Positions 4,636 to 34,805 of a DNA stretch of 64,000 bases are shown piece after piece. Origin of the DNA: Pirellula sp. (lineage in GTDB: Bacteria; Planctomycetota; Planctomycetia; Pirellulales; Pirellulaceae); contig JANMNR010000059.1 in assembly GCA_031368325.1 (NCBI GenBank), forward strand, positions 761 to 64,760, written 5' to 3'. How positions within the stretch are numbered: position 1 is the first letter of the stretch; each line of letters begins with the position of its first letter. The notes below the pieces were generated by a model, which was given only the letters and a program-made list of their open reading frames with translations, was not told where the DNA came from and made no database searches. Position numbers and translations under genes: made by a program.

Positions 4636-4808
4636 CCGGTTTTAACCCCTCGGAGGAAGTATGCCGAAGCGTAGATTAAAAAAACTTTAACCGAAACGAG
4701 TTTTTTCGAAAAATTTCTGTCGCGCTTTGGAGTCTTTCGTCAGTAGTGTTTGCACGGTAAAGGCCTGAATCGCCTCAAATAAGTATTCCTGCCTCAATTC
4801 CTCCCACT

Positions 4809-7800
4809 TTGTACCTTCCTTTTGAGCTATCTCGGCGCGAGCTGATTTGCTCATGCTCTTCTCCAAAGAGCGCCTGTGCACCGGAGTCCATCATGTTTCG
4901 CCAACTTCGTCGAATTCTTCTTAAAGCCATAAAGCACCCTCTCGCAAAGGTGGTAAACCAAGACCTCGAAAAGGGTCGAATCATTGGGGGCGAAGTGAAC
5001 TCGCGTTGGAAGCGAATGAGTGCTCAAGTCTCGTCACCTTTCAAGATTCAAAATAGAGCCAAGTTCCGGCGAACATTGATCGATCAGTTTATTCGATCGC
5101 GTCGACCATTAAAGCCGGTCTTTGAGCAGCTTGAAACGCGAGTTCTCCTAGCAACCAACATTGGTGCTGTTCGACCCGACACAGGGATTGCTAACGACTT
5201 GCTCTCGCATTATCTCGACACGCAACCTCTTTCCAGTGGCGATGCCAATCCTGAGATCACGTTTCACTATGGCTTCAGTGCGACGTCGAATAACGGTGTT
5301 GGTCTTCAAGGGTTCAATGACTACGCGCTGGCTGGTGATCTGAGTGGTTTGGGCTTCGACCAGTCGATTGTCGTTCGACCATTTGCGGGCGCATTGCAGT
5401 GGCTTGGCGATACCGATCGCGATACGACGCAAGAGTATCATTTCCGATTTGGACTGGCTGACATGACGCCATTGATCGCTGACATGAACGGCGACGGTAT
5501 TGATGATGTGGTCGCGGTGGATACGACGACCGCTTCAAACTTGCTGGAGTGGTTTGTGCACTATGGAGTTCCAGGCAGCAGTCCATTCCCGACGGATGAT
5601 TCGACACTCAGCGTCGATGCCACGTTTAGCTTTGGGGTTGATGCGGATCATGGCGCTGCCGTTGGCGGTCTCGCCGACGTTCCTCGCGTTGGCGATATCA
5701 ATGGCGACGGCCGCGCCGATGTGCTGGCCGTGCGCCGAGGCGCCTCGACCAAGGACTGGTTTATCAGTCATGCGCCGGTAAGTTATCCCAACAACACTGC
5801 AACGACACTTGGAATAAGTCAAACGATTTCTGGATATGGGGCCAACGCCGCGGTGCCTGTCGTCGGCGACTGGGACAACGACGGCGATGACAATATAGGA
5901 GCCATCGACGAGGGCTCGCCAAGCACATGGAATCTCGACACCAACGGTGGAGGCGCGGCTGAAATCACCAAGCAGTTTGGACTGAATGGCGACCAGTACA
6001 TCGTCGGCCGTTGGGCCGATGTGCTGTGGGACGGAAGTTCGGATTCCAATTGGTCAACTGCTGCAAACTGGAGTGGAGACAGTGTTCCCAGCGCTGGTCA
6101 AAATGTCGTTATCGATCAACCGGTTTCAGCAGTCACCATCACATCGAGCGGAACTGCCAACGCGGGGACAGTGACATCGACCGAGAACCTTTCGATCACG
6201 GGTGGTACGTTTGATATCGCTGGCAGCATTGAAGCCCCAGTATTTTCTGTCAACGGAGGAAACCTAATCGTCAACGGCACGCTGACGTCGCCGACTTTGT
6301 CGTTGAACACGGGAACATTGACATGGACTGCCGCGGGGCAGGTCACTGACTTAACGATCGACGTTGGAACTGGCACAGTAAGAAACATTGGTGGAGGGTA
6401 CATCAAGGGGTTCCGCTACAACGTCGCCACATCATTGACCGTTGATTTCGATGCTGACATCATTCTCAGCGGTGACATCAGTGGTGCTGGGCAGTTGATC
6501 AAAAACGGAACCGGCCGCCTGCAGCTCACCAACAATAATCCCTATACTGGCTTGACCACGATTAATGCCGGCGAAATCTATCTTACGAATAACGGACTGT
6601 TAGGATCAACCGCAGCTGGAACCGTAATCAACGGCGGAGCCGCATTACGATTGGCTGCTGGCAAAACGAACGCGGATCCACTGATTATGCAGGGAGTCAA
6701 TCCGACGCTGGTCACTGATTCGGGCAGTGCAGCAACTCAGTCCGGGAGTATCTCGCTCAATACAATCAATTCAGCAAGCTTCACAACAGACGCGAGTGGG
6801 AGTCTTTTTGTCAGCAGCGTGATCAGCGGCACCGGCGGGCTCACTAAGCAGGGCACAGGAACGCTGACGCTGTCCGGCGCAAACACCTACCCGGGAAACA
6901 CAGCAATAGTCGCAGGCACGCTGGTAATTGGAACCAACAATGCAATCAACCCGATCACCAGTGTTGAGCTTGGCAGTTCGACAACGAATGGCACGCTCGA
7001 TCTCGCGGGACGAACGCAAACCCTGACGGGTCTAACCGTCGCGGCGGGTGCTGTGGCAGCCAATCAGATCGTTGGTAGTAGCAGTACGACCAGCAATTCT
7101 GTTTTGAACTATAACGGTGTCGGACTGGGGACATTTTCCGGGACAATTCAAAACACGGTTGGCTCCGGAAATCGACTTGTTTCGCTGAATGTTAACAGCG
7201 GTAATCTGTCGCTGACGGGTACAAGTTCGTTCAGCGGCGGAACGTCGATCGCGACGGGTGCGGTTGCCAGGATGTTCACCGGATCTGCATTGGGCAGTGG
7301 TACGATCACGGTCGCGGCGGGTGGATTCGTGGGATTGAACAGTGGCATCACGGTATCCAACGCGGTGGTGCTGCTCGGGGCCAGTGGCACAGGTGCGTTG
7401 GCGAATACGACGGGCACGAATACGCTGACCGGTCAGCTGACGTTGAGCGGCAACAGTGGAATTCTGGTTAACCCGGCCACGACGCTGACGGTGACAGGAA
7501 ATATCAATCTGTCCTCCAACGAACTCGCCGTAACGTCGAATGGCACAGCGGTTATAGCGGGTACGATTTCCGGCAGCGGCTTACTCCAGAAGTCCGGGAG
7601 TGGCACGCTTACGTTGACGGGTGCAAACACCTATTCCGGCACGACCACCATCAATGCGGGTACTCTATTGGTGGGAGGATCCAATGCGATGCCGTCGACC
7701 TCGGCCCTCATCGTTGGTAGCGGTGGAACATTTGACGGGAATGCATCGGGCGGATTCGGCAGTAATATTGGTTCACTAGCTGGCTCTGGCACCGTCTTGT

Positions 7801-10800: not shown

Positions 10801-13800
10801 CGAACGCCGTGAGCGGCTCAGGCAGTCTCACGCTTACCAGCACGGGCGGCTCCGTCACGCAGAGTGCGGCCATCACCGGTCTCTACGCCCTGCAAGTCCT
10901 TGCCAGCACCGGCATCACGCTCACCCACAGCGGCAACTCGTTCGGCTTTTTGGAACTCACCAACAGCACGAGCGGCACGATCACCGCCTCCGCAAGTGCG
11001 ATCACGTCTGGACTCGCCGTCAATCAACAAACCAGCAACGACGTCAACGTGTCCGCTACCGCCGGCGACCTTGTGCTCAGCGCCTTCGGCGGTGGGATCC
11101 AAAGCGTTGGCAACGTGACACTCTCGGCCACTGGTGGTATCTCCTCGTCCGCCTGGGGAGGGCGCCTGACCGGCAGCGGTAATGTCGCCTTGCTCGCCGA
11201 CAGCGACGCCAACGGTATCGGCAGTGTGGTCTTCGCAGCGAATGGCACGGGCGACCCAACAAACAACTACAAAGTGAACGGGAGCAGCATTACACTTCGC
11301 GGCGCCGACATTGACATCGACAGTTCCGCCACCGTCGGCGTTAGCGCCCCTACGGTTAGTACTTTTGCAACAGGGTTGACGAATCCCCATGGGCTGGCCC
11401 TCGATGCGGCTGGCAACTTGTACGTCGCCAGTTATCAGGCCAACAAGATCAGCAAAGTGACACCAGCGGGGGTGGTGAGCGATTATGTGACTGGGCTCAG
11501 TGGTCCGTTTTGGGTTGTATTTGACGCCACAGGCAATATGTACATTTCGAATAGCGGCAACCACACCATAACAAAGCGTACTCCCGGCGGTGTTAACAGC
11601 ACCTTCGCCACCAGCGGGAATGGATTGAATACCCCCAATGGCATGGCATTCGACGCCACCGGCAATCTGTACGTCGCCAATGGTGGTAATAACACAATCA
11701 CTAAGATCGTATTTTCATCGCCTGGGGTGTTCGGCTCTGCGAGCACATTCGCCAGTGGGGGCATGAACAACCCCGATGGTATGTCATTCGATGCCAGTGG
11801 GAATCTCTATGTCACGAACTACAACAACCACACGGTCAGCAAGATCACGCCGGCGGGTGCTGTCAGCACTTTTATCAACTCAGGACTGACGAATCCGGCA
11901 GGCATCGTATTCGACAGCAGCGGCACCATGTACGTTGCGAGCATCAACGGCAACAGCATTATCAAAGTCACGTTCGCATCGCCGGGAGTACTCGGCACCA
12001 CCAGCACCTTCGTAACAACGACCGGTCCTGCGGGCTTAGTCTTTGATTCCGCCGGCAATCTAGTCGTCGCCAATTACACCGCCGGCAACATCAGCAAGGT
12101 CTCGCAGCAACTCACTTCGCAGATGACCCTTCAATCCTCGATGCCGTCGCGGCCGATGAGCCTCGGAGGCGCGAACAACGCCGTCGCCGGTATCAACCTG
12201 ACGGACGCTGAATTGTCTCGAATCTTCACTACGTCCAGCGGCACGGTGACCATTGGCGACGCCGCTCAGGCGGGTCCCATCACGTTTTTCAGTGCAACGC
12301 CGGCCACCACCGCCGGTGCGAATACAACCATCACTAGCATCGGTCAGATCAACCTCGACAGCACTGGTGGAACGGCTCTGAACGCGAACGGTGGCGCCAT
12401 GACTGTCGCTGGCAGTACGATGAATCTCAGCAACGCCAGCTCGGTTGGTTCCGGTTCGCTGAGCGTGACCAGCGGTGGTACGCTCAAGGGCACAGGCACG
12501 GTCGGTGGCGACCTCAGCAACGCCGCCATCGTAGCACCCGGCAACTCGCCGGGCATTGTTACGATCAATGGCAACTACACGCAGTCCAGCTTCGGCAGTC
12601 TGGAAATCGAAATCCAGGGAACCAATGCTGCGGTTCCGGACTTTGATCAGTTGATTGTCAATGGCACTATTAGCCTCGCCGGATCGCTGAATGTCGTCTA
12701 TCTCAGCGGGTATGTCGCTCCGAACGGGAGTTCGTTCGCGGTCATTCAGAATGACGGTGTGGATGCGATCTCGGGGACCTTTGCAGGGCTGGCCGAAGGA
12801 TCCACGTTTGATGTCGGAGCGACTACGTTCTCCATCACATACGCGGGTGGAGATGGCAATGACATGGTGCTCACAGCGTTAAGTCAGAAGTATCTTGTGA
12901 CAACCGTGTCGGATTCTGGTGCTGGATCCCTTCGGCAGGCGATTTTGAATGCCAACGCGAATGCCGGCGCGGACGTGATTACATTCAATATCGCCGGGGC
13001 CGGTCCGCACACGATCGCTGTGACATCGGGACTGCCGACGATTATCGAAACCGTTATTCTCGACGGCGCGACGCAGCCGGGCTATTCCGGCACGCCGATC
13101 ATTGAACTCAACGGAGCCAATGCAGGTGCGGGGGTCAGCGGGTTGACGATCATGTCAAGCGGCAGCACGATTCGAGGGTTGGTCATCAATCAATTTGGCA
13201 GCAGCGGCGTTGTGATTTCCGGCAGCGGCGCCAGTTCGAACATCATCGCGGGCAACTACATCGGAACCGACAGCTCGGGACAGGCTGCTCCGGAGATTTA
13301 CGAGTCATTTGCCTACACGAGCGGAACGGACATTACCGGAAAAACTGGTGGCCAGTCCTTTAATGGTGCCTGGGGCGACTACAGTTCTGGCGACAACGGG
13401 TTCACGGTCCAGAATGGACTGACCTACCCTGGACTCACCGTTTCCGGTGGTGCTGCTGGAGACTTGCCAGGGCTGTACAACGATGGCAACTCCCGATACT
13501 ACGATGCAACCAACTATGCCAGCTTGGTCAGTCGTGGTGAATTCTGGTTCTCGTTCCTGTACAACGTGAACAGCGGCTACTTCTCCGTGAATCCATTCGT
13601 CGCTTTCACTGGAATTAACAACGTCGGCCGCATGGAACTCAGCGATGGTGGAGGCATTTACCTGACTGGCGGAGCCTGGAGTGGAGATACGACTGAGGGT
13701 GCGACGGTTCCGCTGGGGCAGAACGTCTGGATCGTCGGCAAGTTGACTGTCACCAGCGCGGCCGACGATGGGGCGAATGACCGAATGGAAATGTGGGTCA

Positions 13801-28800: not shown

Positions 28801-31800
28801 TTAATGGTGGCTTAGACTCGGATGCGTTGCTGAACAATGCATCGGGCCTTGCATCGTTGGATTTCAATGGTGATGCGGGTGCGGATGTTTTCGTGAACCA
28901 CGGTGGGGCAATTGTGTCGCTCGAGTTCGATGGTGGTGCAGACAACGACATCTTGATCAATGACGGCGTCTCGCTGGTCAATCTGACATTCGAGGGTGGT
29001 GCTGATAGCGACACATTGATCAACAGCGGAGAATTGCTACAAACGCTTACTTTTAACGGTGGTGCGGATGCGGACGTTTTGTTGAACTCAGGCGGGCAAC
29101 TGGGAATCCTCCAATTCGATGGCGGTGCGGATGCCGACGTTTTGATCAACGACGGGCCTGTGATTGGCAGACTTGAAATGAATGGCGACGCTGGAAAAGA
29201 TCGATTGTGGAATCGCAAGGGCGGTATCCAAATCGGTTCGATTGTGTTTGTCGGAGATGCAGGCGTTGATACGTTGATCAACGACGCGGCCGGGATTGCC
29301 ACTCTAACGTTTACGGGCGGTGCCGATGCGGACGTCCTGCAGAACAATGGCACGGTCGCGAACCTATCGTTTGATGGTGGAGCCGATGCAGACGTTTTGG
29401 TCAATGCGGGCTTCGCAGGAACACTGACTTTTGATGGAGGGGCGGATGCGGACATCCTTTTGAACCGTGGGCCGCTTGTGGACATCTTGGATTTCTCGGG
29501 CGATGCAGGCGTGGACACTTTGTTCAACTTGGGGGCAGTCACCTCGCTCACGTTTGAGGGTGGTGCCGATGCGGACGTGTTGCAGAACAATGCCAACGTC
29601 GAAACGTTGTCGTTCTTCGGTGATGTCAATCTTTCTAGCGGTCAAGCAAGTTCTGACGATGGCATAGATACGTTGGTCAATAACGGAAGCGTACAAACGC
29701 TTTTGTTTGAGGGGGGCGCCGACAACGATGTCTTCCAAAACAATGCAACCGTCACTTCATTGACGTTCGGCGGTGGGGCTGACAACGATACGCTGGTCAA
29801 CAACGGCAGTGCCATCACGACGCTGAACTTCAACGGGGACGCAGGCATAGACACCCTGATCAATAATGGCAGCGGTATCGCAACTCTCAACTTCGACGGT
29901 GGTGCCGATGCAGATTCGTTGCGCGTCGAGGGACGTCAAATAGGCAACGTCATCTTCAACGGTGGATCGGGTGGCGATTCGTTCGCTTACAATGCTTTTG
30001 GCACCTCGACGTCGAGCATTCGCTTCTACGGCGGAGCAGGTAACGACTTCTTTGCGATGCGTGGTATTGCTTCGACGGTGATCTTTGACGGTGGGATTGA
30101 CGACGACGGGGTGTTGGTCGTCGGCTCGGGCGCCATGACATTGACGGGCGGCGATGGGGACGATTTCTATCGCTTTATGTCGAACCCGCTTGCCGATGTG
30201 ACTTTGACGGATGCGTATTCGGGAACAACTGATGTTTCGAAGGACACGCTGGACTTTAGCAGTTTCACGGGCGGGCCGGCAAATCTCGATCTTCGCCTCG
30301 TCAACGTATTTCAACCGCAAGGAACAGGGCAGCTTCGCGTTAAGCTAGTGGACCCGATGGCGATCGAGAACGTTGTTGGTACACCGTTTGCCGACACGAT
30401 TTACGGCAACGCTCGCAGCAACTACATCGGCGGTGCGGATTTTGATGACGCATTTAGCGGGCCAGTTGCGGCTCCTCGCGGAGTTACGCAGTGGGTCTAT
30501 TTGGACTTCGATTCCAAGACCAACACGGGTGTGGTTGATGCGATAACCGGGCTAGCCGATGCAGGTGAATACGTTTATACGCCAACCGAGCGAGAGTTGA
30601 TTCGCCAACGAGTCGAGTCGATTTATCGCGGTCCGAACTCGGGCGCACCTTGGTTCGATGTTCGAGTTGTGACTGCCATGGTCGACATTCCGTCCACGTT
30701 CCTATCGACCAACAATTTTGTGACCATCTATTTCAACCAAACTCCAGCAACTGGCCGACCCGGTGGGTTGGCGAGTGAAGTAGATCCGGGGAACGTCAAT
30801 TTGGGCGGAAGTGCCGCGGTTCAGATCAACGGTCTACTTGGCGGCGTGATCAACAACAACGATTCGCTCGAGACCATCGAGGGTGACTTCAATGCATATA
30901 AAGGAGACACGGTCGAAGTCAGTCAAGCAGAGGTAGGCGCGACCAAACCGGCTGGAACAAGCTATAACTTTGTCAGACTCTCCTCCAAAGTCGCCGCCCA
31001 CGAACTCGCGCACTTGCTCGGATTACGACACCAAGATAGCTTCGGGCCAATTGGCTTTGGTGTACACGATGTTCCAGGGGGTGGCAGCTACAAGCCGATT
31101 TACACAGGCCCATCGGGCGGTGTTGAGACAATCGATCACTTGATCGGATCTCCCGCTTCGATTGGTTCGACTCGTTTCAATGACTTGAACGACTTGTTCT
31201 TCGGAGAACGCGAAGCCATTAAACTGGCCTTTGCAAACAGCAATCCTTTGCAGACAACAACGACCAACGTTGGAAATAACAACGACTTATTGACGGCAGC
31301 TCCACTGAGTATGGTGACCCTCGCTGTGCCAAACACACTGAGCAGTGGCCAAAATGCAACCAAGGATTTGTACGTCCAGATTAGCTCAGTGATTGGGCAG
31401 ATCAGCCTTGATTTTGGTACGCCGCGGCGAAGCAAGAGCGACTGGTACTCCTTCACCGGCCGCGCTGGCGAACTGATCAACATCGACGTGCTCTCGAACT
31501 CTGTAGGCCGATTCGGGACCGGACTCAACGGAGCCATGACCAGTGACGACTTCATTGATTCGATTGTACGAGTTTATAATTCCAATGGTCAGCTGGTTAA
31601 GTATTACGATGGCCTAGCGGAAAACGACGACGTATTTGAGCCTACCGATTCAAGCCTCATCGATCTACTGCTGCCAGCCGATGGAACGTACTACATCGAG
31701 GTGGATTCATTCCACAAATTCGGTGATCCGTTGGGCAACGCCTCGAATCCACTAAGCCCACTGAATCCTGCCAACCCCAACAACATACTGGCATATCAGG

Positions 31801-34800
31801 AGATCGTGGATCGATTCACGGACACCGTCAACGACACGGACACTGGACGTTATCAATTGGTCGTTTACAAGTTCCGCAAGTCCAGTTCATCGGACATGAG
31901 AGATGATTTGAAGGGATTCGGCGGAACGGATGTTATCAATGGCGGGCCAGGTGATAGTTTTGCCATGGACTATGTTTTAGGTGCAGGTCCAACGATGAAC
32001 GAAGGCAGCACGTTCACTCGCACCGTGACGCTCGATGACCGCGCGGCCTCATCCTGGACTGGCAGCACCGTCGACTACGGAGATGGAACCGGTATTCAGC
32101 CACTCAGTGTATCTTCGAATGGGGAGTTTTTGTTGAGTCATGTTTGGGCGGACGACAACCTCTATACCATCACGGTGAACATAGTTAACGACATAGGGAA
32201 GACACTGACCAAGACTCTGGCAGTCAGTGTCGCCAACGTTGCCCCGACGGCGGCGATCAGCGGCTCGACAGCGATCATCTACGGTGAGGCGGCAACCGTC
32301 AGCCTCAGTGGAGCCTTTGATCCATCGACTGCGGACAGTACAGCCGGATTGCGTTTTGCTTTTGCTTTAAGCGCTGCCGACCTGATTTCGGTGACTTATG
32401 CCAGCGCCGACGCTTCAAGTGATTCCACGCTAACGGGACTGTCAGCCGGGACATACACGGTCTATGCACGGGTGATGGACCAGGATAACGGCTTCACACA
32501 GTACTCGACGACGATCCTTGTGCTGCCGCGACTGCTGGAGATTACGGCGGCCGCAAAGACCAAGATCTACGGGGCGGCGGATCCAGCGTTTACTTACACG
32601 TTTAGCGCGTTGTTCAATGGTGATACGTCAAGTGTGTTTACCGGTTCGCTCAGCCGCTTGGCTGGAGAAAACGTGAACAACTATGACATCAGCCAAGGCA
32701 CGTTGTCGGCTGGTTCGAACTACAACATCGCTTACGCTGGTGCGAACTTGAGCATTACACCGAGAAGTTTGGCTGTGACAGCGGCAGACAGGACCAAGAT
32801 CTACGGGGACTCCGATCCAACGTTGACTTACACGTCTGGTGCGTTGTTCAATGGTGACACTTCAAGCGTTTTAACCGGTTCGCTAAACCGCTTGGGTGGC
32901 GAGACTGTGAACAGCTATGCCATCAGCCAAGGCACGTTGTCGGCTGGTTCGAACTACACCATCGCTTACGCTAGTGCGAACTTGAGCATTACACCACGCA
33001 GTCTGGCGGTGACAGCGGAAGACAGGACCAAGATCTATGGCAATGCCGATCCAACGTTGACTTACACGTCTGGTGCGTTGTTCAATGGTGACACTTCAAG
33101 CGTCTTTACCGGTTCGCTAAGCCGCGTGGCTGGCGAAAATGTGAACAGCTATGCCATCAGTCAAGGTACGGTGTCGGCCGGTTTGAACTACACCATCGCT
33201 TACGCTGGTGCGAACATGAGCATTACACCACGCAGTCTAGCGGTGACAGCGGCAGACAGGACCAAGATCTACGGGGACTCCGATCCAGCGTTGACTTACA
33301 CGTTTGGCGCGTTGTTCAATAATGACTCGTCAAGCGTGTTTACCGGTTCGCTAAGCCGCTTGGATGGCGAAAACGTGACCAGCTATGCCATCAACCAAGG
33401 AAGCTTGAGCGCTGGTAGCAACTACGCGATTAGCTATGTCCCGGCCGCTTTAACCATCTCGGCGGCACCGCTGACTATCGCGGCAGATGCCAAGACAAAG
33501 AATTTTGGGCAAGCCGATCCCACCTTCACTTACCAGGTTAGCGGCTTAAAGTTCGGCGAAACGCCGGCGACCGTTGTCACTGGCTCATTAACTCGTCAGC
33601 CTGGCGAAACTGCCGGAGATTACAGTATTCTGCAAGGTTCACTGGCCGTTGGTAGCAACTACTCGCTAGCCTACATTGGAAACACCTTGACGATTATCGG
33701 GTCGATCAATAATCCACCCTCTGTTTCGATCAGTACACCCGTCGATGGGTTCATGAATGTTGCGTCGACCTTCACCTTCACGGCCACTGACCCCGATGCA
33801 GCGGATCAGACAGGGGTCTATACCTACACGATCCACTGGGGTAACGGAATCTCTACAACGGTGACAGGTTCAACGACGCGGAGTATCACGTACACCTATC
33901 CAGGCGTGGCAGCCGATGGCAGCTTCGTGATCACCGCCACAGTAACCGATCCTCGTGGTGCTGTAAGTGTGGCGACCACAAGCGCCTTCGTCGTTGGCGG
34001 TTGGACGTTGATGGCCGATCCGCTTCGTCCCTCGGATGCCATTTTGGTCCTTGTCGGTTCACAAGGACCAGACACGATCAAAGTGAAGACCAAGGACGAC
34101 GACTACTATAAGGTTACGATCCGAGATCGCGACGACGACATTCGGCGTCGGGGAACTGTTTACGGCGATGTCCGGCGCATTCTTGTTTTTGCACATGGAG
34201 GCAACGACCGAGTGACGATCGATGATGATGTCGAGTTCACAACCGAGATATGGGGCGGGGCTGGCAACGACGAAATCAAGGGTGGAAGCGGCAACGACAT
34301 CCTGATGGGAGAAGCTGGTGATGACAATCTCTGGGGTGGGGATGGACGAGACATCGTGATTGGTGGAACAGGCGCCGATCGAATTCATGGAGATGCCCAC
34401 GACGACATCCTCATTGCAGGCTTTACGGCCTTCGAATCCGAGTTCAATCAATGGGCACCGAGCGCATTCTTGCCAGCGACCCGTTTGACATTGAATCAAC
34501 AACGCGCGGCGTTGGAATCCATCATGGCTGAATGGGCCAGTCCGCGGTCGTACACAGATCGCAGAAACAATATTCGCGGAGCCGGAACAGGGACTCGCCT
34601 GAACGGAAACAACTTCTTTAGGGTGAGCGATACTGTGATGACCAACAATACGGTGTTTGACGACGCTTCCGTCGATCAATTGTGGGGAGACAACGGCACG
34701 GACTGGTTCTTTGCCAATTTGAATAGCGACCCCGGTAGCGTCCTGGACCAGATCAAGGATCGTTCGGGCAACGAATCACAGGAAGATATTGACCGCTGGT

Positions 34801-34805
34801 GGTGA
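4809..34805 (+). CDS. Giant (~9,970-9,998 aa) multidomain secreted/surface protein (adhesin/RTX/protease-like); true start possibly ATG 4893 or ATG 5016
   Basis: One stop-free frame of 29,997 nt. GGAG precedes ATG 4893. FEQLETRVLLA export motif, followed by ordered recognisable repeat and domain families. Confidence 0.92.
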   Translation: MYLPFELSRRELICSCSSPKSACAPESIMFRQLRRILLKAIKHPLAKVVNQDLEKGRIIGGEVNSRWKRMSAQVSSPFKIQNRAKFRRTLIDQFIRSRRPLKPVFEQLETRVLLATNIGAVRPDTGIANDLLSHYLDTQPLSSGDANPEITFHYGFSATSNNGVGLQGFNDYALAGDLSGLGFDQSIVVRPFAGALQWLGDTDRDTTQEYHFRFGLADMTPLIADMNGDGIDDVVAVDTTTASNLLEWFVHYGVPGSSPFPTDDSTLSVDATFSFGVDADHGAAVGGLADVPRVGDINGDGRADVLAVRRGASTKDWFISHAPVSYPNNTATTLGISQTISGYGANAAVPVVGDWDNDGDDNIGAIDEGSPSTWNLDTNGGGAAEITKQFGLNGDQYIVGRWADVLWDGSSDSNWSTAANWSGDSVPSAGQNVVIDQPVSAVTITSSGTANAGTVTSTENLSITGGTFDIAGSIEAPVFSVNGGNLIVNGTLTSPTLSLNTGTLTWTAAGQVTDLTIDVGTGTVRNIGGGYIKGFRYNVATSLTVDFDADIILSGDISGAGQLIKNGTGRLQLTNNNPYTGLTTINAGEIYLTNNGLLGSTAAGTVINGGAALRLAAGKTNADPLIMQGVNPTLVTDSGSAATQSGSISLNTINSASFTTDASGSLFVSSVISGTGGLTKQGTGTLTLSGANTYPGNTAIVAGTLVIGTNNAINPITSVELGSSTTNGTLDLAGRTQTLTGLTVAAGAVAANQIVGSSSTTSNSVLNYNGVGLGTFSGTIQNTVGSGNRLVSLNVNSGNLSLTGTSSFSGGTSIATGAVARMFTGSALGSGTITVAAGGFVGLNSGITVSNAVVLLGASGTGALANTTGTNTLTGQLTLSGNSGILVNPATTLTVTGNINLSSNELAVTSNGTAVIAGTISGSGLLQKSGSGTLTLTGANTYSGTTTINAGTLLVGGSNAMPSTSALIVGSGGTFDGNASGGFGSNIGSLAGSGTVLLGNAPLSMGWDNTSTTFSGSISRSGQLIKEGSGVFTLSGTLLNPGNMTINSGTVRLGAAERIADDRFVAIGNSGATLDLNGFNETIGGMSGGSGSLVTLGSGTLSTGGLNLSNSFFGEISGSGGFTKTGTGTFTLERTNTFSGTTTISGGTLQVGSGGTTGSLGTGAVVNDATLVYDLSSSIHVTNAISGTGTLHLMSGAGVTQSTSIAVASLAVEAAGTINLSSSNDVDIVALRTTVGNISFEDVDGFAVRSVNGVAGVSSSNGSPSLVAFAGDISVDNTSAANDLEGGVGFNMNITLFGAGAKFTVASAANVSGAGAQITADRMDFVGTLAATGTVTLQPNVAGQLVNLGSIGDATANTLELSDAELDRISASVVRIGRSNSGAIAISQAISPSGTLHLISGAGVSQSAGITVTNLAVVAAGNIALNMPVNDVNLLAASSSGGFINFADADDLTVDTVNGISGISTTAGIVNLSSRGDLTINNTSAMNDVSSSGASGFTYSVNMTVDAASGKLTIANGANVQSTGGSHSYRANKMNLAGTIGAAGQTVELAPLQNNQAVNLGSTTDILFNTLELSDAELDRITADVLIVGLGSATGGITISQSISRPAATNLTLTTGGASSIVFGAAGSLNTNGGDVTLTTATGAGSGGVDGNSGTTNITANALAITSGAGGVGGTGAYLTTAVSSVTASASNAAIRLAESDSVTIVAPGLSGSLIQLESGTFLSGANNLIPDTADVDVRFAAGLNLNNFSEQITGLLVYGGPSSGALVATGTGSLTLGANGISYGFGSNGEVGATISGNLNLGGSTREINVPDGLAANDLTISATIGNGGLLKTGAGTVTLSGANTYSGSTGINAGTLRAGAANTFSANSAVTLADVAGATLDLNNFSNTIFSLAGGGTAGGNVTLGSGTLTTGGSSAVTSFAGVISGTGGLTVAGLDNSYLTLIGNNTYNGTTTINSGQTYLQAGTGGTTGSIGTGPVVVGNDAGLFINRSDSINFANAVSGSGSLTLTSTGGSVTQSAAITGLYALQVLASTGITLTHSGNSFGFLELTNSTSGTITASASAITSGLAVNQQTSNDVNVSATAGDLVLSAFGGGIQSVGNVTLSATGGISSSAWGGRLTGSGNVALLADSDANGIGSVVFAANGTGDPTNNYKVNGSSITLRGADIDIDSSATVGVSAPTVSTFATGLTNPHGLALDAAGNLYVASYQANKISKVTPAGVVSDYVTGLSGPFWVVFDATGNMYISNSGNHTITKRTPGGVNSTFATSGNGLNTPNGMAFDATGNLYVANGGNNTITKIVFSSPGVFGSASTFASGGMNNPDGMSFDASGNLYVTNYNNHTVSKITPAGAVSTFINSGLTNPAGIVFDSSGTMYVASINGNSIIKVTFASPGVLGTTSTFVTTTGPAGLVFDSAGNLVVANYTAGNISKVSQQLTSQMTLQSSMPSRPMSLGGANNAVAGINLTDAELSRIFTTSSGTVTIGDAAQAGPITFFSATPATTAGANTTITSIGQINLDSTGGTALNANGGAMTVAGSTMNLSNASSVGSGSLSVTSGGTLKGTGTVGGDLSNAAIVAPGNSPGIVTINGNYTQSSFGSLEIEIQGTNAAVPDFDQLIVNGTISLAGSLNVVYLSGYVAPNGSSFAVIQNDGVDAISGTFAGLAEGSTFDVGATTFSITYAGGDGNDMVLTALSQKYLVTTVSDSGAGSLRQAILNANANAGADVITFNIAGAGPHTIAVTSGLPTIIETVILDGATQPGYSGTPIIELNGANAGAGVSGLTIMSSGSTIRGLVINQFGSSGVVISGSGASSNIIAGNYIGTDSSGQAAPEIYESFAYTSGTDITGKTGGQSFNGAWGDYSSGDNGFTVQNGLTYPGLTVSGGAAGDLPGLYNDGNSRYYDATNYASLVSRGEFWFSFLYNVNSGYFSVNPFVAFTGINNVGRMELSDGGGIYLTGGAWSGDTTEGATVPLGQNVWIVGKLTVTSAADDGANDRMEMWVNPTPGIVPDNGTRVIDATFAFSAPANSGVIIQTNSTPNIVLDEYRVSALYPGTDTGNATGIAIQNGATNTTIGGTTSGARNLISGNKGPGVDSSGAGTGTDIQGNYFGVNAAGTTPLPNYLSGNNAIDVIGQGTIGGLTTTPGTAAGNLFGGTVTLTSASTVLGNTFGLQADGTTILGVAVPSTQASSGIRSEASGSTIGGAAVGSRNVFAGHGSANFNGNSYLDIMFGGTNTVQGNYFGTDITGLLNRNSGDVRGIQTVFGATNNVVGGPTAAARNVIVGGTRGFETYEPGNTFEGNYVGIAADGVTAYGMSQVGVFIRDNNNIIRRNVISGSSAVTGLALADTTTGTIVAGNFIGTDASGTLARPNLIGISVGTSGNTIGGPNAVDRNIISGNADFGLRFDFGATNNTVQGNYVGVQVDGVSSLLNSNGAINVASGATLKGSGSFTGNIVNQGSIAPGNSPGIITINGNYSQSGSSTLAIELAGTNAATPEFDQLIVNGNVSLAGTLNVSLLSGFVPSNGNSFRIIDNDGTDAITGTFSGLAQGATLMVGGRAFYVSYIGGTGNDLVLTAVNSLTAGALAPPPATEGQAFSNFTIFHFTDITPTASVSDYTVTVITGDGEVTLTNQANPTNVQVVASQGGGFDVKLSYTYALQLSNGAFRVTVVNAGGNSISASIAASVPGTLDTNFGTGGVTTTPFFGNESFRDSPSNLGSALQQPDGKIIVVGLSYNAVGGHSLALARHNPDGTLDSSFGTGGKVQFDVPGAFFSVANNAALQPDGKIVVAGNLLARFNTDGSFDATFAGGIGWVSVPQFQYGYASQVRVQPGDGKIVVVGNGADGRSFAVSRYNTNGSLDTNFGTNGTALTAIGCVSEVVNAMAIQANGAIIVGGHSFQTGLNIALAAMARFDSSGALDTSFGTNGIVITNFGDVTNYQWVQTALSLADGKILIGGTNGNSGDVVARYNTDGSLDTNFGTNGFASSPGLINYGVYSLALQTDGSILAGSTAGFTGSFAVSRFSGNGVLDTSFGTNGTASSVPGEGAVTNGLVVQADGKIIAVGGAVGPTSTIDFGLARYNSDGQLDTSFGTNGQVRTDLLRVNYPLTGQATSVVVQSDGKTLVAGTETGFNRVAVTRYNADGTLDNSFGTSGIFKLDVTGLGLYPAGYAASGVEISSMTLQADGRIVVAGKLIASYGGNFEAFVARINTNGTLDTSFSTDGVVSVGGVPGQPWDFHAAAKSVVTLADGTIVIAGEGRPYNDRVFGKLFAFNSDGSLKTSFGSGGQVVTEFTGQTSTSIFNSLAAQADGKLIAVGQSLHPGAWKTALARYNSDGSPDASFGTAGQVQSDGSVFGAGVQWFIPESVVVQSDGSLLVSGYSDTTTGQFATLARYTSSGVLDTTFGTNGAVISTMTGSFKDVTIQANGRIVATSGLKVARFSSSGVLETSFGTNGITTVPGTGQFNSVTLQPDGNIVAAGYINGANGSNFAVARISAGGYNVADANIVTTTTDGIDALDGIVSLREAITIANARNGVDQIAFNITGSGIFTISPASALPTITEAVILDGTTQPGYTSTPVIELSGANAGAGVNGLTITSSGSTIRGLVINRFASSGILISGSSTSSNVIAGNYIGTDVTGLLDLGNGLNGVDVIGAPNNTIGGNTAADRNIISGNNLNGVKVLLADGNTIAGNYVGLGANGTTVVANTNNGIYTVFASNTTIGGSTAGARNAVSGNDASGIALDTGSGSIISGNYVGLTADGTAARMNSGAGISVAYMTGATIGGTTANERNVVVSNGGIGVGPGSSGVQVIGNYIGTDATGSVGLATGGTGVSVYFSTNVTVGGSTAETRNVILQGAGSYGMFLQNSTGIRIKGNYIGVDVTGNSTSASSKGIHLAESSAIIGTDGDGIDDATEGNVIAGASINIDMPALGTGTVIAGNKIGTNAAGTAILGTSSLGIRDESLGSNRIGSNADGTSDDLERNIIAGASSAGIYVSAPNTVIAGNYIGTNAAGTAALANSTGVFIQGSNVTVGGTTSASRNVISGNTGNGVEVIGPNNTVSGNYIGVDSSGNLRLANLGSGIATGNAATGTVIGGFTATAGTGSGNVISGNASHGISLGGGSTNYIIRGNVIGLGADGSTIISNLSGIYGMAPGTIIGGDDDDDGALDGVVKSRNVISGNELLEIWVEDTRSLNLKIQGNYIGTDRTGMSARVFPVGNNSGVGLRWTADVLIGGTTPGAGNVISGHRLSQIALSGLGGSDPAWSTNNKIQGDIIGLAADGVTDLTSAFLALIDVSFGMHGNTIGGTTSGARNIIAGSSGIRVDGVTTSDNVIVGNYVGTDITGTLARGGDYGILIGGGATNTTIGGSTAGARNLISGNAQGLTIGAGSTNTLVAGNYIGTNAAGTAAIGNLQFGIAITGSNNTIGGTTIGARNVISGNGSGAGNGIGLAIYSSSGNVVQGNFIGTDHTGLLPIANDGTGIRIAGDDSDPANEAHDNVIGGTAPGAGNVISGNAAGISIEGNGAYNNTVAANIIGLGVDGSTIVGNGTGVAFANSHHNTIGGTTAAARNIISGNGGGISINYGADHNTISGNYIGTGSTGMIAKPNGMGILVNGPFTTIGGTAAGAGNVISGNSTDGILMIDGNTLVAGNIIGLNAAGNAALGNGRYGVAIEGSASANTVGGTTVAARNVISGNAQDGIRISSSNALSGTVSWWKADGTANDSVGGSNGTLQNGATYATGLSGQAFSLDGTNDYVQFNRPAAVTDFTIDSWVYIDPVTNVGERVVVGWDDYQYVGNGSRQAIVLKSSAPTYGGVNAGQGRPSFGILNGATFDRISAPEALTAGWHHLAGSRTGTSLRLYVDGVQAATMTSTISMAMQPNDSLVIGRSSSHPGLANPAHFAGLVDETALFSRALTATEIATIHEIGGASKSRNTIQGNYIGTNASGTADLGNGMDGIRVSSPANRIGGTTAGAGNVISGNNNAGLWINSGANNTQVYGNLIGTNASGSEAIGNTYYGILVASSSNQIGGSTASQRNVVSGTIQNNGNDNVTGAGIAIYDAGFITVTGNVVQGNYIGTDATGTSSIANFTSGVTVQTAVAGNRNTIGGSNPGEGNVISGNGLTGGLGAGIYVNSMASPGFSESNIVAILGNRIGTNATGSVALPNRSSGIYFYQSPGNVVGGSSTLDNGRLSGAGNLISGNLGNGIDVINGGSNSDATVIQGNFIGTDLTGTQAIGNGNIGVAIGSSNTILGGTVAGLRNLISGNSHGVGLGVGGTNNQVIGNYIGTDVSGLAAIPNRFFGVWIGTNGNSIGGASVASGNVIANNGQVGLKLEGTTGNNGTYLNNVYFGNQILAIDAGPIGRSLNDDPDSDGVLNYPVITSTQIVGNDLIVVGTMPAGKTVELYISAPTSNGDGQGRTRLASVLDDSTADENNVAGQFRIRIPIGNDVNHGTPLTALTLGSISGGSTSEFSDIKIAGEAGSSLAPQISLGATTVSITSGNAITVDGSFYDPDSVSWEATVNYGDGTGVQPLNLNADNTFRLQHTYIATGSYIVTVVIRDASLVSSTKTLGVIVQNEAPTANFNEFTITSPANEGQLVTLKGRFEDTAGTHTATIQWGDGLTSIVPITPGSREFTATHVYVDDTNLQGTATPSDVYRVLVTITDETGANNTTPVGLFLEEIRNALPSALNVTVSSTSISEGLSVSLSGLFADPGLADVHKVRINWGDGNFSLITLPVGDREFTFGDFPELTHVYVDDQNTGADEYTITVELADDDERQRPAVVTQVISVANAVPSAVSLNLAQTTILESGLVSLSGSFADLGQFDTHQVSVDWGDGTVPTVLSLAEGVTSFGSLSHQYLDNPSVGGSFSIVVRVSDNDSPSLFGSATASIFVQNVAPVLAPFVLSSNGNAINEGDEVTISGSYTDVSSLDVHTVRVNWGDGVSTLATVNLMTRTFTATHRYLDNNSFPLLVLPTLPLAINGVLPYYGISVTLDDQEGGIDTRIAQQAVLNVVPTVTIESGTGNANPNFINLAAGVNDPGVADTFTHAGAFRWSAEVVGVPGTLQVGSAATFMVDRTGYADRLWRVSLSVADDEGGVGSFMTTLLVGTNGDDVGVNRLIVTDATFNQSGTTNLLALALDGDDTIDASGVTDPSLSVTLVGGQGIDNLFGGAGDDVYVLAQGNDNANVPNDDVMTPVESGNDRYRLRPNSELTVIDRFGNNTLDFGLADFGITFDLSLISTTMPEIQDVLPVPLVAPLHTVKTQGAFSKLEGSSHGDNLTGASNASVFGGAGNDSFTAKAGTTGASFNGGADNDILMVSATGIANLDFNGDAGADTLVNLGVVTGLTFDGGADADILQNEGSILASLNFGGDAGADMLLNTGSIADLTFIGGADNDIFVNNGSATTTLDFNGDADILLSGFGSIGTLSFGGDSGADLFVNLGTITDLAFNGGADNDIFVNNGSAVSSLEFGGDLDVLLSGVGTIIGELSFNGDAGIDTLINRGSIGELTFDGGADADILQNSGTIVRELSFEGDAGIDTLVNLGSVGALTFDGGADADVLQNFGTVIGNLSFEGDMGADVLTNLGSLGSLTFSGGADSDVLQNNGTVLGALVFGGDAGVDTLLNQGLIGDLTFAGGADADVLRNFSGGAIESLAFNGDTGADLLVNLSAITTLTFLGGADADILQNVGDIGLLNFGGDAGADLLVNSGAVTTLTFNGGADSDILINSGTVLAQLSFGGDAGLDTLVNNGIVFGLTFSGGADADILQNTGTIQNTLLFNGDAGVDTLTNSGQVLALTFNGGADSDVLMNTGTVLDLLTFTGDLGADLLTNLGTISDLTFNGGADADVLTNNGTILDDLMFTGDVGADLLINRGSVGDLTFNGGADNDVLLNLSSVGTLTFDGGADNDVLQNNGSDITSLTFIGGADNDVFINNGSSIGTLTFDGGADNDVLVSNGSLIGNLEFTGDSGVPVLDRKSNDTLILRGSGSGSPTSRVQFHGGYGVDAFENNATGFASIIFNGGLDSDALLNNASGLASLDFNGDAGADVFVNHGGAIVSLEFDGGADNDILINDGVSLVNLTFEGGADSDTLINSGELLQTLTFNGGADADVLLNSGGQLGILQFDGGADADVLINDGPVIGRLEMNGDAGKDRLWNRKGGIQIGSIVFVGDAGVDTLINDAAGIATLTFTGGADADVLQNNGTVANLSFDGGADADVLVNAGFAGTLTFDGGADADILLNRGPLVDILDFSGDAGVDTLFNLGAVTSLTFEGGADADVLQNNANVETLSFFGDVNLSSGQASSDDGIDTLVNNGSVQTLLFEGGADNDVFQNNATVTSLTFGGGADNDTLVNNGSAITTLNFNGDAGIDTLINNGSGIATLNFDGGADADSLRVEGRQIGNVIFNGGSGGDSFAYNAFGTSTSSIRFYGGAGNDFFAMRGIASTVIFDGGIDDDGVLVVGSGAMTLTGGDGDDFYRFMSNPLADVTLTDAYSGTTDVSKDTLDFSSFTGGPANLDLRLVNVFQPQGTGQLRVKLVDPMAIENVVGTPFADTIYGNARSNYIGGADFDDAFSGPVAAPRGVTQWVYLDFDSKTNTGVVDAITGLADAGEYVYTPTERELIRQRVESIYRGPNSGAPWFDVRVVTAMVDIPSTFLSTNNFVTIYFNQTPATGRPGGLASEVDPGNVNLGGSAAVQINGLLGGVINNNDSLETIEGDFNAYKGDTVEVSQAEVGATKPAGTSYNFVRLSSKVAAHELAHLLGLRHQDSFGPIGFGVHDVPGGGSYKPIYTGPSGGVETIDHLIGSPASIGSTRFNDLNDLFFGEREAIKLAFANSNPLQTTTTNVGNNNDLLTAAPLSMVTLAVPNTLSSGQNATKDLYVQISSVIGQISLDFGTPRRSKSDWYSFTGRAGELINIDVLSNSVGRFGTGLNGAMTSDDFIDSIVRVYNSNGQLVKYYDGLAENDDVFEPTDSSLIDLLLPADGTYYIEVDSFHKFGDPLGNASNPLSPLNPANPNNILAYQEIVDRFTDTVNDTDTGRYQLVVYKFRKSSSSDMRDDLKGFGGTDVINGGPGDSFAMDYVLGAGPTMNEGSTFTRTVTLDDRAASSWTGSTVDYGDGTGIQPLSVSSNGEFLLSHVWADDNLYTITVNIVNDIGKTLTKTLAVSVANVAPTAAISGSTAIIYGEAATVSLSGAFDPSTADSTAGLRFAFALSAADLISVTYASADASSDSTLTGLSAGTYTVYARVMDQDNGFTQYSTTILVLPRLLEITAAAKTKIYGAADPAFTYTFSALFNGDTSSVFTGSLSRLAGENVNNYDISQGTLSAGSNYNIAYAGANLSITPRSLAVTAADRTKIYGDSDPTLTYTSGALFNGDTSSVLTGSLNRLGGETVNSYAISQGTLSAGSNYTIAYASANLSITPRSLAVTAEDRTKIYGNADPTLTYTSGALFNGDTSSVFTGSLSRVAGENVNSYAISQGTVSAGLNYTIAYAGANMSITPRSLAVTAADRTKIYGDSDPALTYTFGALFNNDSSSVFTGSLSRLDGENVTSYAINQGSLSAGSNYAISYVPAALTISAAPLTIAADAKTKNFGQADPTFTYQVSGLKFGETPATVVTGSLTRQPGETAGDYSILQGSLAVGSNYSLAYIGNTLTIIGSINNPPSVSISTPVDGFMNVASTFTFTATDPDAADQTGVYTYTIHWGNGISTTVTGSTTRSITYTYPGVAADGSFVITATVTDPRGAVSVATTSAFVVGGWTLMADPLRPSDAILVLVGSQGPDTIKVKTKDDDYYKVTIRDRDDDIRRRGTVYGDVRRILVFAHGGNDRVTIDDDVEFTTEIWGGAGNDEIKGGSGNDILMGEAGDDNLWGGDGRDIVIGGTGADRIHGDAHDDILIAGFTAFESEFNQWAPSAFLPATRLTLNQQRAALESIMAEWASPRSYTDRRNNIRGAGTGTRLNGNNFFRVSDTVMTNNTVFDDASVDQLWGDNGTDWFFANLNSDPGSVLDQIKDRSGNESQEDIDRWW
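5121..5153 (+). other. Planctomycete extracellular N-terminal motif (LEPRxLL / Planc_extracel type)
   Basis: Translation FEQLETRVLLA after an Arg/Lys-rich leader. Confidence 0.85.
5328..6020 (+). repeat. FG-GAP/VCBS-like Ca-binding repeats
   Basis: DMNGDGIDD (5481), DINGDGRAD (5694), DWDNDGDDN (5868), with xFGx motifs between them. Confidence 0.7.
6495..10690 (+). repeat. Autotransporter passenger-associated beta-strand repeats (PATR-type), about 7 copies
   Basis: LxKxGxGxLTLxGxNTYxGxTTIxAGTL motifs at about 6495, 6840, 7581, 7878, 8172, 10300 and 10602. Confidence 0.85.
11352..12101 (+). repeat. NHL-type repeats x6 (predicted 6-bladed beta-propeller)
   Basis: Six copies of GLxxPxGxxFDxxGNLYVxNxxxxxIxK. 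Confidence 0.85.
12888..15100 (+). repeat. CSLREA-like module plus parallel beta-helix repeats (GNYIGTD / IGGxTxxARNVISGN), block 1
   Basis: VTTVSDSGAGSLRQAI followed by GNYIG/RNxISGN repeats. Confidence 0.75.
15840..18260 (+). repeat. Delta-60-type repeats x14 (predicted two 7-bladed propellers)
   Basis: Fourteen QxDGKI[IV]-type motifs alternating with ARYNxDGxLDxxFGxxG. Confidence 0.85.
18290..23900 (+). repeat. CSLREA module plus long parallel beta-helix repeat block 2
   Basis: VTTTTDGIDALDGIVSLREAI followed by many GNYIGT...IGG...RNVISGN units. Confidence 0.8.
21880..22550 (+). other. LamG/concanavalin A-like lectin domain inserted in the beta-helix
   Basis: SWWKADGTANDSVG...QAFSLDG...WHHLAG...LYVDG...FAGLVDETALFSRAL. 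Confidence 0.85.
24220..26060 (+). repeat. Tandem PKD/Ig-like domains (about 5-6)
   Basis: VNYGDG, IQWGDG, INWGDG, VDWGDG and VNWGDG motifs, each followed by HxY. Confidence 0.85.
26619..30176 (+). repeat. About 57 tandem 19-23 aa RTX-like Gly/Asp repeats (xGGADxDxLxN... / xGDAGxDxLxN...LxF)
   Basis: Units counted by eye from the translation; consensus F-x-G-[G/D]-A-[D/G]-x-D-x-L-x-N-x-G-x(3-5)-L-x-F. Confidence 0.9.
30486..31230 (+). other. Zinc metallopeptidase-like domain (HExxHxxGxxH)
   Basis: HELAHLLGLRH at 30999-31031, preceded by QWVYLDFD and an upstream GGLA segment. Confidence 0.75.
31440..31703 (+). other. Pre-peptidase C-terminal (PPC)-like domain
   Basis: DWYSFTGRAGELINIDV...DSIVRVYNSNG...LPADGTYYIEV. 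Confidence 0.75.
32529..33698 (+). repeat. Five tandem 234-bp (78 aa) MBG-type repeats
   Basis: The TK(I/N) anchor recurs at 32559, 32793, 33027, 33261 and 33495. An exact 58-nt match lies at 32812 and 33046. Confidence 0.92.
34190..34805 (+). repeat. C-terminal canonical RTX nonapeptides and putative C-terminal secretion tail
   Basis: GGAGNDEIK-GGSGNDILM-GEAGDDNLW-GGDGRDIVI-GGTGADRIH-GDAHDDILI; tail DDASVDQLWGDNGTDWFF...DIDRWW. Confidence 0.8.

Follow-up and report, generated by a model that had tools for sequence, protein, structure and literature searches.

Giant genes are a recurrent feature of planctomycete genomes. Kohn et al. (2016, PMC5177795) reported them in 29 of the 29 planctomycete genomes then available, with genes longer than 20 kb in 15 genomes and longer than 30 kb in two, the largest reaching 36,239 bp, and West-Roberts et al. 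(2023, bioRxiv 10.1101/2023.11.21.568195) described Planctomycetota proteins of at least 10,000 amino acids (aa) as "frequently detected", with 7,478 proteins of at least 10,624 aa in one public database. An N-terminal motif, RRLxxExLExRxLLA, was described on cell-surface proteins of R. baltica, according to the account of Studholme et al. (2004) given in PMC8567305. In T. immobilis, eight of the ten longest proteins (4,016–10,566 aa) carry this motif, and proteomics detected 20 of 52 motif proteins, eight of these 20 in the sodium dodecyl sulfate (envelope) fraction only (PMC8567305). Here, we analyzed a stretch of 64,000 nt (hereafter the window) from Pirellula sp. (assembly GCA_031368325.1), corresponding to positions 761–64760 of the assembly's longest contig (JANMNR010000059.1, 65,179 nt), in which a single open reading frame (ORF) at 4809..34805 on the forward strand encodes a giant protein, probably a surface fibre. 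Coordinates with two dots refer to the window and, unless stated otherwise, to its forward (+) strand, and residues are numbered from the first TTG of the frame.

The frame runs for 9,998 codons to a stop codon at 34803–34805, i.e., over 29,997 nt or 46.9% of the window, and a first-pass annotation, made from the DNA letters, was thus right to describe an uninterrupted frame of ~30 kb covering ~47% of the window. Across this interval, the coding frame includes a single stop in 9,999 codons, compared to 156–601 stops in the five other frames, none of which stays open for more than 326 codons, so that the 30-kb frame is not due to chance. The window sequence contains no Ns, and matches to families or homologues in Pfam, NCBIfam, and alignments are spread over the entire length, all in one frame. 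We consider this very probably a genuine single gene. Translation probably starts at an ATG at 5016..5018 (Met-70), because Met-1 of a 7,718-aa relative (P0003) aligns beside it, ~3 residues before residue 69 of the frame. Counted from Met-70, the product would comprise ~9,929 aa, with a mass of 998 kDa (~1.0 MDa) and a pI of 4.15. Gly makes up 15% of its residues, and the frame encodes four Cys, three of which lie upstream of Met-70. No 19-aa window in the protein exceeds a Kyte-Doolittle hydropathy of 1.6, which leaves no membrane-span or signal-peptide core, and no anchor in the form of a transmembrane segment, lipobox, or sortase-type motif was detected. Promoter and terminator scans returned no more candidates than shuffled sequence.

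Proteins of this size had been called rare in bacteria, which holds generally but not for this lineage. The same genome includes other frames of >8,719, 5,609, >4,883, and 4,511 aa, and genomes of the same genus harbor open frames of 14,639 aa (G002:C13:4101-48017, minus strand), 11,775, 11,402, and 9,613 aa (the contigs listed with the last three being G013:C43, G002:C58, and G002:C47), in line with the two published surveys cited above. A protein of this size and build is ordinary for planctomycetes, not a rarity. The 14,639-aa frame combines a LEERVLLA leader, delta-60 repeats, a beta-helix with LamG, and the C-terminal cassette of the protein studied here at 37% identity.

As judged from alignments, the giant protein is a mosaic of three parts: a head of restricted distribution, a species-specific middle, and a widely shared C-terminal cassette of ~4,100 aa, in which a beta-helix, six PKD domains, a GGADxD beta-solenoid, a zinc peptidase, a PPC domain, PKD, RTX repeats, and a C-terminal module follow one another. 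Within a collection of 5.8 billion proteins, searched for giants only, the module at aa 8400–9000 was found in at least 26 other giants of 5,500–8,000 aa at 36–68% identity, one of which (P0010, 7,794 aa) comes from a cultured strain, "Planctomycetaceae bacterium SH139". Detailed mapping of five relatives (P0002–P0005 and P0010) showed that each aligns collinearly over most or all of aa ~5913–9250 and that their N-terminal parts differ, with PATR, delta-60, cadherin, FG-GAP, or plain beta-helix repeats. In congeners, the cassette is collinear at 74–80% identity: a contig of congener G022 (G022:C279) aligns at 74% over aa 5913–9267 and again, at 73%, from aa 9626 to the C-terminus, and congener G006 is collinear from aa 7912, where its contig is cut, to the end. 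The segment at aa 8350–9000 has orthologues at 82–83% identity in two congeners, a paralogue at 60% on contig C61, and a counterpart at 46% within the 14,639-aa frame. Among the relatives found, P0003, whose gene lies on an independent contig of 209 kb, comes closest over the full length: its head is 64% identical over 440 aa and its cassette 51% over ~3,800 aa (51–55% for the beta-helix part of the cassette in P0003 and P0002), and the MBG block, RTX repeats, and C-terminal module are also present. Compared with the protein studied here, P0003 is shorter by 2,200 aa, has nine MBG copies as compared to five, and its middle consists of another beta-helix, without PATR scaffold units, delta-60 propellers, second capped beta-helix, or LamG.

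Whether this domain combination is unique, as the first-pass annotation suggested it may be, depends on the part considered. The exact architecture was found nowhere else, the N-terminal head was absent from 400 other Pirellulales genomes, and the middle is without an orthologue; however, the ~4,100-aa cassette is widespread, P0003 shares both ends, and neighbouring module pairs all have either a precedent elsewhere or an internal explanation. Within the middle, two elements, the capped beta-helix and a module characterized by an NSPGI motif, each occur twice, at 74–76% DNA identity. The cap module, which in other giant frames usually lies 300–400 aa from the N-terminus, is internal here (aa 2691 and 4566). 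Together, the duplicated modules and internal caps suggest growth by internal duplication or by capture of gene-like blocks. The MBG_2 block (32544–33713) includes five copies here, nine near-identical ones in P0003, and none in G006 and G022, which points to fast gain and loss of 78-aa units.

Domain scans (Pfam and NCBIfam over ten 1,000-aa pieces, plus selected segments) recovered the originally proposed order of modules nearly item by item, with some qualifications: CSLREA was recognizable by motif only, the export leader scored below its model cut-off, the tract described as RTX-like is not built from nonapeptides, and the peptidase was picked up only around its HExxH. At the N-terminus, the leader motif FEQLETRVLLA (aa 105–115, 5121..5153) matches the published ExLExRxLLA and follows a basic stretch, and the leader has no hydrophobic core; counted from Met-70, EQLETRVLLA (aa 106–115) occupies residues 37–46 and is preceded by RSRRPLKP. 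The N-terminus carries RSRRPLKPVFEQLETRVLLA, fitting the ExLExRxLLA part of RRLxxExLExRxLLA. Next comes the head, composed of FG-GAP/VCBS-like repeats at aa ~116–480 (5154..6248), with a Pfam FG-GAP_3 match spanning aa ~296–361 and 64% identity to residues 4–447 of P0003. It is followed by a PATR/autotransporter-type beta-helix stalk at aa ~481–2186 (6249..11366; PATR/TIGR02601, five copies) made of three scaffold units of ~205 aa, the first two of which are 46% identical to each other; the scaffold signature LxL(S/T)DAELxRI occurs exactly three times. An NHL beta-propeller (aa 2187–2439, 11367..12125; Pfam NHL/SGL) sits within the third scaffold unit, whose tail, together with a linker and the first NSPGI module, makes up aa 2440–2690 (12126..12878; no Pfam match).

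The remainder of the middle is dominated by further stalk-like and propeller-like repeats. A first parallel beta-helix at aa 2691–3440 (12879..15128; motifs NxISGN and GNYIGT) begins with a CSLREA-like cap and holds a ~220-aa unannotated insert. No CSLREA model scored on the protein, and the label reflects motif likeness (GSLRQAI at aa 2706 and VSLREAI near aa 4590). The second NSPGI module (aa 3441–3562, 15129..15494), found by regular expression and as DNA repeat D13, is 74% identical to the first copy. This module (12330–12878 and 15129–15494 in the window; "NSPGI...INGNY...DQL.VNG", ~120–180 aa) comes after beta-helix stalks, recurs at 35–53% identity in dozens of metagenome contigs (loci L047–L108) without any family match, and may be a beta-helix capping or autochaperone-like domain. 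Downstream lie an Ig-like segment and 14 delta-60 (DUF5122) repeats at aa 3563–4565 (15495..18503; TIGR02608 in 14 stretches, PF17164), which probably form two beta-propellers, and a second CSLREA-like parallel beta-helix at aa 4566–5735 (18504..22013; weak Beta_helix/NosD matches, repeat families D3, D5, and D8). A Laminin_G_3 domain, i.e., a concanavalin-like lectin (aa 5736–5906, 22014..22526; PF13385, E 7.7e-22), is placed inside this beta-helix, and the helix continues at 22527..24128, where the conserved cassette begins at aa ~5913 in alignments to G022:C279, P0003, and P0002.

In the cassette, the beta-helix is followed by about six PKD-like Ig domains at aa ~6441–7075 (24129..26033; PKD_4, E 4e-20, further copies being counted by eye), a weak Pfam HemolysinCabind match at aa 7140–7166, and the tract previously described as RTX-like (aa ~7270–8400, 26616..30008), which was delineated by repeat search, AlphaFold2 (AF2) modelling, and fold matches. 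This tract alternates with a period of ~20 residues (28 GGADxD and 16 GDxGxD motifs) instead of the canonical nonapeptide. The AF2 model of aa 7270–7640, computed with six homologues, is strictly regular and all-beta (predicted local distance difference test, pLDDT, 87; predicted template-modelling score, pTM, 0.84), and its best fold matches, none at E ≤ 1e-3, were 3p4g (probability 1.0, TM 0.52), i.e., the Ca2+-dependent beta-helical region IV of a 1.5-MDa Marinomonas adhesin, along with CyaA RTX blocks and the S-layer protein RsaA. These predicted structures support a Ca2+-type beta-solenoid of ~55 turns, which would measure ~26 nm at an assumed 4.8 Å per turn. Beyond the peptidase and PPC domains described below, PKD/Ig-like domains (aa ~9060–9245, 31986..32543; sequence reading and junction alignments) precede five MBG_2 (YGX-type) domains (aa ~9246–9635, 32544..33713; PF18676, five copies, E 7e-101), a PKD/Big_13 domain (aa ~9640–9735, 33726..34013; weak PF00801 and PF19077 matches), and canonical RTX nonapeptide repeats at aa ~9790–9870 (34176..34418; PF00353, E 1.6e-17 over aa ~9814–9870, and regular expression). 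The protein ends with an unannotated module of ~139 aa terminating in ...DIDRWW (34386..34802; no Pfam or NCBIfam match). Three copies of this module occur in the genome, the other two at G000:C61:4202-4615 and G000:C304:4971-5201 (both on the minus strand), each ending exactly at the stop codon, and the module follows RTX repeats; one copy belongs to a 1,485-aa protein that also bears the leader, and the module is kept in P0003, G006, and G022. The module could be a sorting or anchoring element.

The zinc-peptidase-like domain (aa ~8555–8810, 30471..31238) contains the motif HELAHLLGLRH at aa 8731–8741, whose H, E, H, G, and H do not vary among the 18 aligned sequences (44–69% identity); the complete HExxHxxGxxHxD and two residues further downstream, E253 and H257, are likewise invariant. 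Pfam recognizes the domain only through ~18 residues around HExxH, with weak Peptidase_M10/Reprolysin matches at aa 8731, while no Pfam or NCBIfam peptidase model reached threshold on aa ~8555–8810, and a sequence search of the Protein Data Bank (PDB) with this region returned nothing. The domain is followed by a PPC beta-sandwich (aa ~8836–8969, 31314..31715; PF04151, Pfam match aa 8877–8967), for which Foldseek retrieved the collagen-binding domains of ColG and ColH (probability 1.0, TM 0.57–0.68). An exhaustive HMMER search with the peptidase module yielded 707 cluster representatives at E ≤ 1e-3, including 270 at E ≤ 1e-30, most of them inside large proteins; proteins with a peptidase-like module (including P0028–P0172) range from ~230 to >6,000 aa. 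On this sequence basis, the module represents a sizeable zincin family without a curated model. It is metzincin-like, and resembles metzincins (adamalysin/ADAM, astacin, pappalysin, and serralysin) in the invariant HExxHxxGxxH followed by Asp and, as far as a model with weak fold matches allows, in the predicted topology of sheet, active-site helix, and C-terminal helix; a PPC domain after the peptidase is likewise shared with many secreted bacterial peptidases. It differs from metzincins in lacking one defining feature, a conserved Met-turn, in having no above-threshold Pfam or NCBIfam peptidase match and no PDB match by sequence, and in being buried ~8,700 residues deep.

Taken together, we consider it fairly probable that this gene encodes an exported, acidic, Ca2+-stiffened surface fibre of ~1 MDa that serves in binding and includes an embedded protease. 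From the features above and from related proteins, we infer that the product is exported, located at the surface, fibre-shaped, able to bind Ca2+, and proteolytically active, and that it takes part in adhesion or captures substrate. By analogy with other motif-bearing proteins, export would proceed via the planctomycete ExLExRxLLA leader without a classical signal peptide, and the T. immobilis proteomics (PMC8567305) suggest that the product would be located at the cell surface or envelope. In the present genome, the leader pattern LExRx[LMVIF][LMF][SAT] occurs 50 times in frames of at least 100 aa, and 44 of these 50 occurrences fall within the first 200 residues; the median frame with the pattern is ~790 aa long, and each of the four longest complete frames bears the motif. 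The very long surface filament that had been proposed is plausible given this leader, the lack of any hydrophobic segment, the near absence of Cys, and the large share of beta-solenoid. Outside the cytoplasm, at or close to the cell surface, the protein would most likely form a long fibre stiffened by Ca2+, with stalks formed by beta-solenoids (the PATR helix, the two parallel beta-helices, and the GGADxD solenoid of ~55 turns) and lengthened by the strings of PKD, Ig, and MBG domains. Set into these stalks, the FG-GAP head, NHL propeller, two delta-60 propellers, LamG lectin, and PPC domain would act as binding modules, and the embedded HExxHxxGxxH zinc peptidase could cut bound substrate or process the fibre itself. 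The species-specific middle would have been built by internal duplication and domain insertion and joined to the shared cassette. Allowing 4.8 Å for each solenoid turn and ~4 nm for each Ig domain, we estimate a length of ~150–200 nm for the fully extended fibre.

Several observations weigh against this surface-fibre interpretation. The only NCBIfam match to the leader, NF012209 (LEPR-XLL), coincides exactly with the motif, but at 14.2 bits (E 0.025) it stays below the cut-off of 17, and Pfam PF07595 (Planc_extracel) gave no match on the leader even at E ≤ 10, both models being very short. No secretion genes were found among the genes of the 64-kb window, and no canonical HlyD-type protein of a type I secretion system (T1SS) was found in the genome, only generic sub-threshold membrane fusion proteins; the best TIGR01843 match reached 70.5 bits as compared to a cut-off of 208.7, in a genome that is 96% complete, so that absence is not proven. 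For the peptidase, the 18-sequence alignment has no Met-rich column that would correspond to a Met-turn, with Met in only 2 of 18 sequences at the candidate position in DH(L/I)(I/L/M)GSP. The AF2 model of this region computed on the alignment has a zincin-like topology at a moderate mean pLDDT of 65 (pTM 0.69), in which prediction is good for the sheet and for both main helices but poor for the 55 residues past the motif (pLDDT < 50), after which a beta-sandwich follows. Foldseek returned only weak matches for the catalytic part (ADAM-8, probability 0.85, TM 0.43, E 0.02; PAPP-A2; astacin). Finally, the assembly (7.45 Mb in 807 contigs, estimated 96% complete with 3.6% contamination) is a metagenome-assembled genome (MAG), and neither 40 relatives nor the metagenome collection contained an orthologue of the middle of the protein (aa ~512–5912, ~5,400 aa).

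The first alternative is that the protein, or fragments that it cuts from itself, is shed into the medium as a substrate-targeted metalloprotease complex that breaks down particulate or algal material, to which its lectin, propeller, and PPC modules would bind. Such a released exo-enzyme would fit the catalytic motif being invariant across the family, the PPC domain, which is usual beside secreted peptidases and here matches collagenase collagen-binding domains, the lack of any detected transmembrane, lipobox, or sortase-type anchor, and the presence of the peptidase module in many proteins of 400–1,500 aa. However, >90% of the mass consists of non-catalytic stalk and binding modules, which would be costly if shed, T. 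immobilis proteins with the same leader are recovered in the envelope fraction (PMC8567305), and the conserved module at the extreme C-terminus could anchor or sort the protein. We therefore regard release as doubtful, and favor a fibre retained at the surface.

The second alternative concerns the assembly, in which pieces of two or more planctomycete giant genes might have been joined, most likely within aa ~512–5912. A misjoin of this type could occur in a MAG as fragmented as this one (807 contigs, 3.6% contamination); furthermore, the middle lacks an orthologue, the cap modules found elsewhere near the N-terminus are internal here (aa 2691 and 4566), and a suspect in-frame junction in G022:C279 indicates that artefacts or rearrangements occur in this gene family. 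On that contig (L014), positions 1–450 encode the C-terminus of an efflux adaptor (CzcB/HlyD-like, periplasmic), followed by MIERILRFALAHRFLVV, which continues in frame into beta-helix repeats. We take MIERILRFALAHRFLVV to be the probable start of an RND (resistance-nodulation-division) pump. The junction lies 315 nt from the contig end and represents either a misassembly or a real deletion or rearrangement. The 4,305-aa ORF of G022 was also considered as a stand-alone C-terminal half, i.e., as evidence of gene fusion, and was rejected because of this anomalous 5' end.

For the giant gene itself, most lines of evidence argue against such a chimera. The frame is open throughout 30 kb, no 25-mer of the ORF is common to any other contig of the assembly, and DNA repeats are all ≤85% identical, the internal duplicates being at 74–76%. 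The longest exact repeat in the ORF (58 nt) sits in the MBG block, with no long exact repeat elsewhere, so that at most the MBG copy number is uncertain. GC content at third codon positions is steady along the ORF (0.58–0.69), and both ends of the protein occur together in P0003, on its independent contig. Single alignments to independently assembled giants span 16 of the 18 module junctions, and the orders NSPGI to cap, and NSPGI to delta-60 to cap to beta-helix, are seen in P0003, P0004, and P0005. The remaining two junctions flank the NHL propeller, the removal of which restores one scaffold unit: in silico deletion of aa 2187–2439 yielded a full-length unit of ~205 aa with E-values of 1e-13 and 1e-10, as compared to 7e-7 and 4e-5 for the unspliced sequence. 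Since the same unit resumes in register and in frame after 253 residues, a misjoin at the NHL propeller is hardly possible. Tetranucleotide distances placed all ORF chunks beyond the 95th percentile of the genome, to a similar degree and owing to repeat composition, and provide no chimera signal either way. Overall, an assembly chimera is decidedly unlikely.

MARTX-like or contact-dependent delivery, in which the Gly/Asp-rich tract would form a translocation structure and the peptidase would act on other cells as an effector that is delivered or cleaves itself, appears very improbable. The protein does have RTX repeats near its C-terminus, an internal protease, and a weak MARTX_Nterm match in the repeat tract (NF012221, E 4e-5), but the score of 20.9 bits is far below the cut-off of 700, Pfam and NCBIfam identified no MARTX cysteine protease domain or effector domains in the giant protein, and there is no effector array, immunity gene, or nearby set of T1SS genes. 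Moreover, variability is concentrated in the N-terminal half instead of a C-terminal toxin tip, and the fold predicted for the tract is that of a plain Ca2+-type solenoid. That the gene is a silent or decaying relic, unexpressed or non-functional, would fit its narrow distribution as an exact gene but is hardly credible for a stop-free 30 kb with invariant catalytic residues and conserved domain boundaries, which indicate ongoing purifying selection.

A more far-reaching version of the surface-fibre reading can be sketched. The C-terminal ~4,100 aa might be a chassis for dozens of planctomycete megadalton proteins, onto which lineage-specific N-terminal payloads are grafted and grow by domain insertion, and whose zincin would be dedicated to self-processing, cutting or freeing the variable half after export. 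We offer this as a conjecture that is rather unlikely to hold in full; if true, modular surface fibres that mature themselves, with an undescribed export machine, would form a new class.

The genes surrounding the giant gene comprise two Ser/Thr kinases, a sulfatase, a fasciclin protein, an extracytoplasmic function (ECF) sigma/FecR pair, a DUF1559 pseudopilin, and a flavin redox cluster, all typical for planctomycetes and without an obvious tie to it. The downstream kinase (34827..37805; Pfam Pkinase with TPR) begins 21 nt past the giant gene's stop codon and is found at 75% identity in the same position in congeners G006 and G022, a case of conserved synteny that does not imply a functional link. 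The upstream kinase (817–4635) differs from it in combining Pkinase with AAA_16, and displays a weak sub-threshold match to the SNAD4 deaminase-like family at aa 986–1036. Between 47665 and 56790, the ECF sigma/FecR pair is transcribed divergently from genes encoding a DUF1559 pseudopilin-like protein, a secreted FAD (flavin adenine dinucleotide) oxidoreductase with a Golvesin_C domain, an FMN_bind/Fer4_5 membrane protein, and ApbE, which may constitute an extracytoplasmic flavin redox cluster. Two ORFs, at 38287–40656 (789 aa) and 46302–47459 (385 aa), had no Pfam match at E ≤ 0.001.

For annotation, these results imply that frames of 30 kb in planctomycete MAGs should be treated as genuine genes, and they map, residue by residue, the modules of a protein that would appear in databases only as "beta strand repeat-containing" or "PKD domain-containing". 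They also illustrate how a megadalton protein can be built from a shared C-terminal cassette and a fast-changing N-terminal half, the latter growing as segments are duplicated internally and entire domains are inserted into the loops of repeats. Three recurrent modules without a curated family emerge from this map, namely the zincin without a Met-turn, the ~20-residue GGADxD repeat, and the strictly C-terminal module of ~139 aa, and we consider the cassette and these three modules the more interesting part of the findings. Since the organism is uncultured, the gene alone does not make the function or export of the class easier to test.

Compared to known systems, the PATR repeats are shared with autotransporters (type V secretion), but no C-terminal barrel family match was found anywhere in the giant protein. 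The likeness is broader to the giant RTX adhesins, such as the Marinomonas primoryensis ice-binding adhesin (MpAFP), LapA, and SiiE, which are likewise megadalton, acidic, Cys-poor, and Ca2+-dependent (a property predicted here), and combine long repetitive extenders and ligand-binding modules with RTX repeats near the C-terminus. Unlike for these adhesins, no type I secretion genes are adjacent to or recognizable beside the giant gene (no ABC transporter, HlyD-type, or TolC-like gene set in the 64-kb window), the N-terminal retention module is replaced by a planctomycete leader, the repeat unit is ~20 aa as opposed to 9 aa in RTX or 19 aa in MpAFP, and an internal zinc peptidase is present only in the giant protein. 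The closest correspondence is to the planctomycete giants with the RRLxxExLExRxLLA motif (PF07595, NF012209), a class known by description and without demonstrated function or export route. The present protein differs from these in a head-middle-cassette combination not found elsewhere and in a leader below the hidden Markov model cut-off. It resembles them in phylum, in the motif and its position, in the lack of a classical signal peptide, in a size of 4,000 to >10,000 aa, in adhesion-type and Ca2+-binding repeats, and in the many paralogues per genome, and its gene product joins this already described class of planctomycete giant surface proteins.

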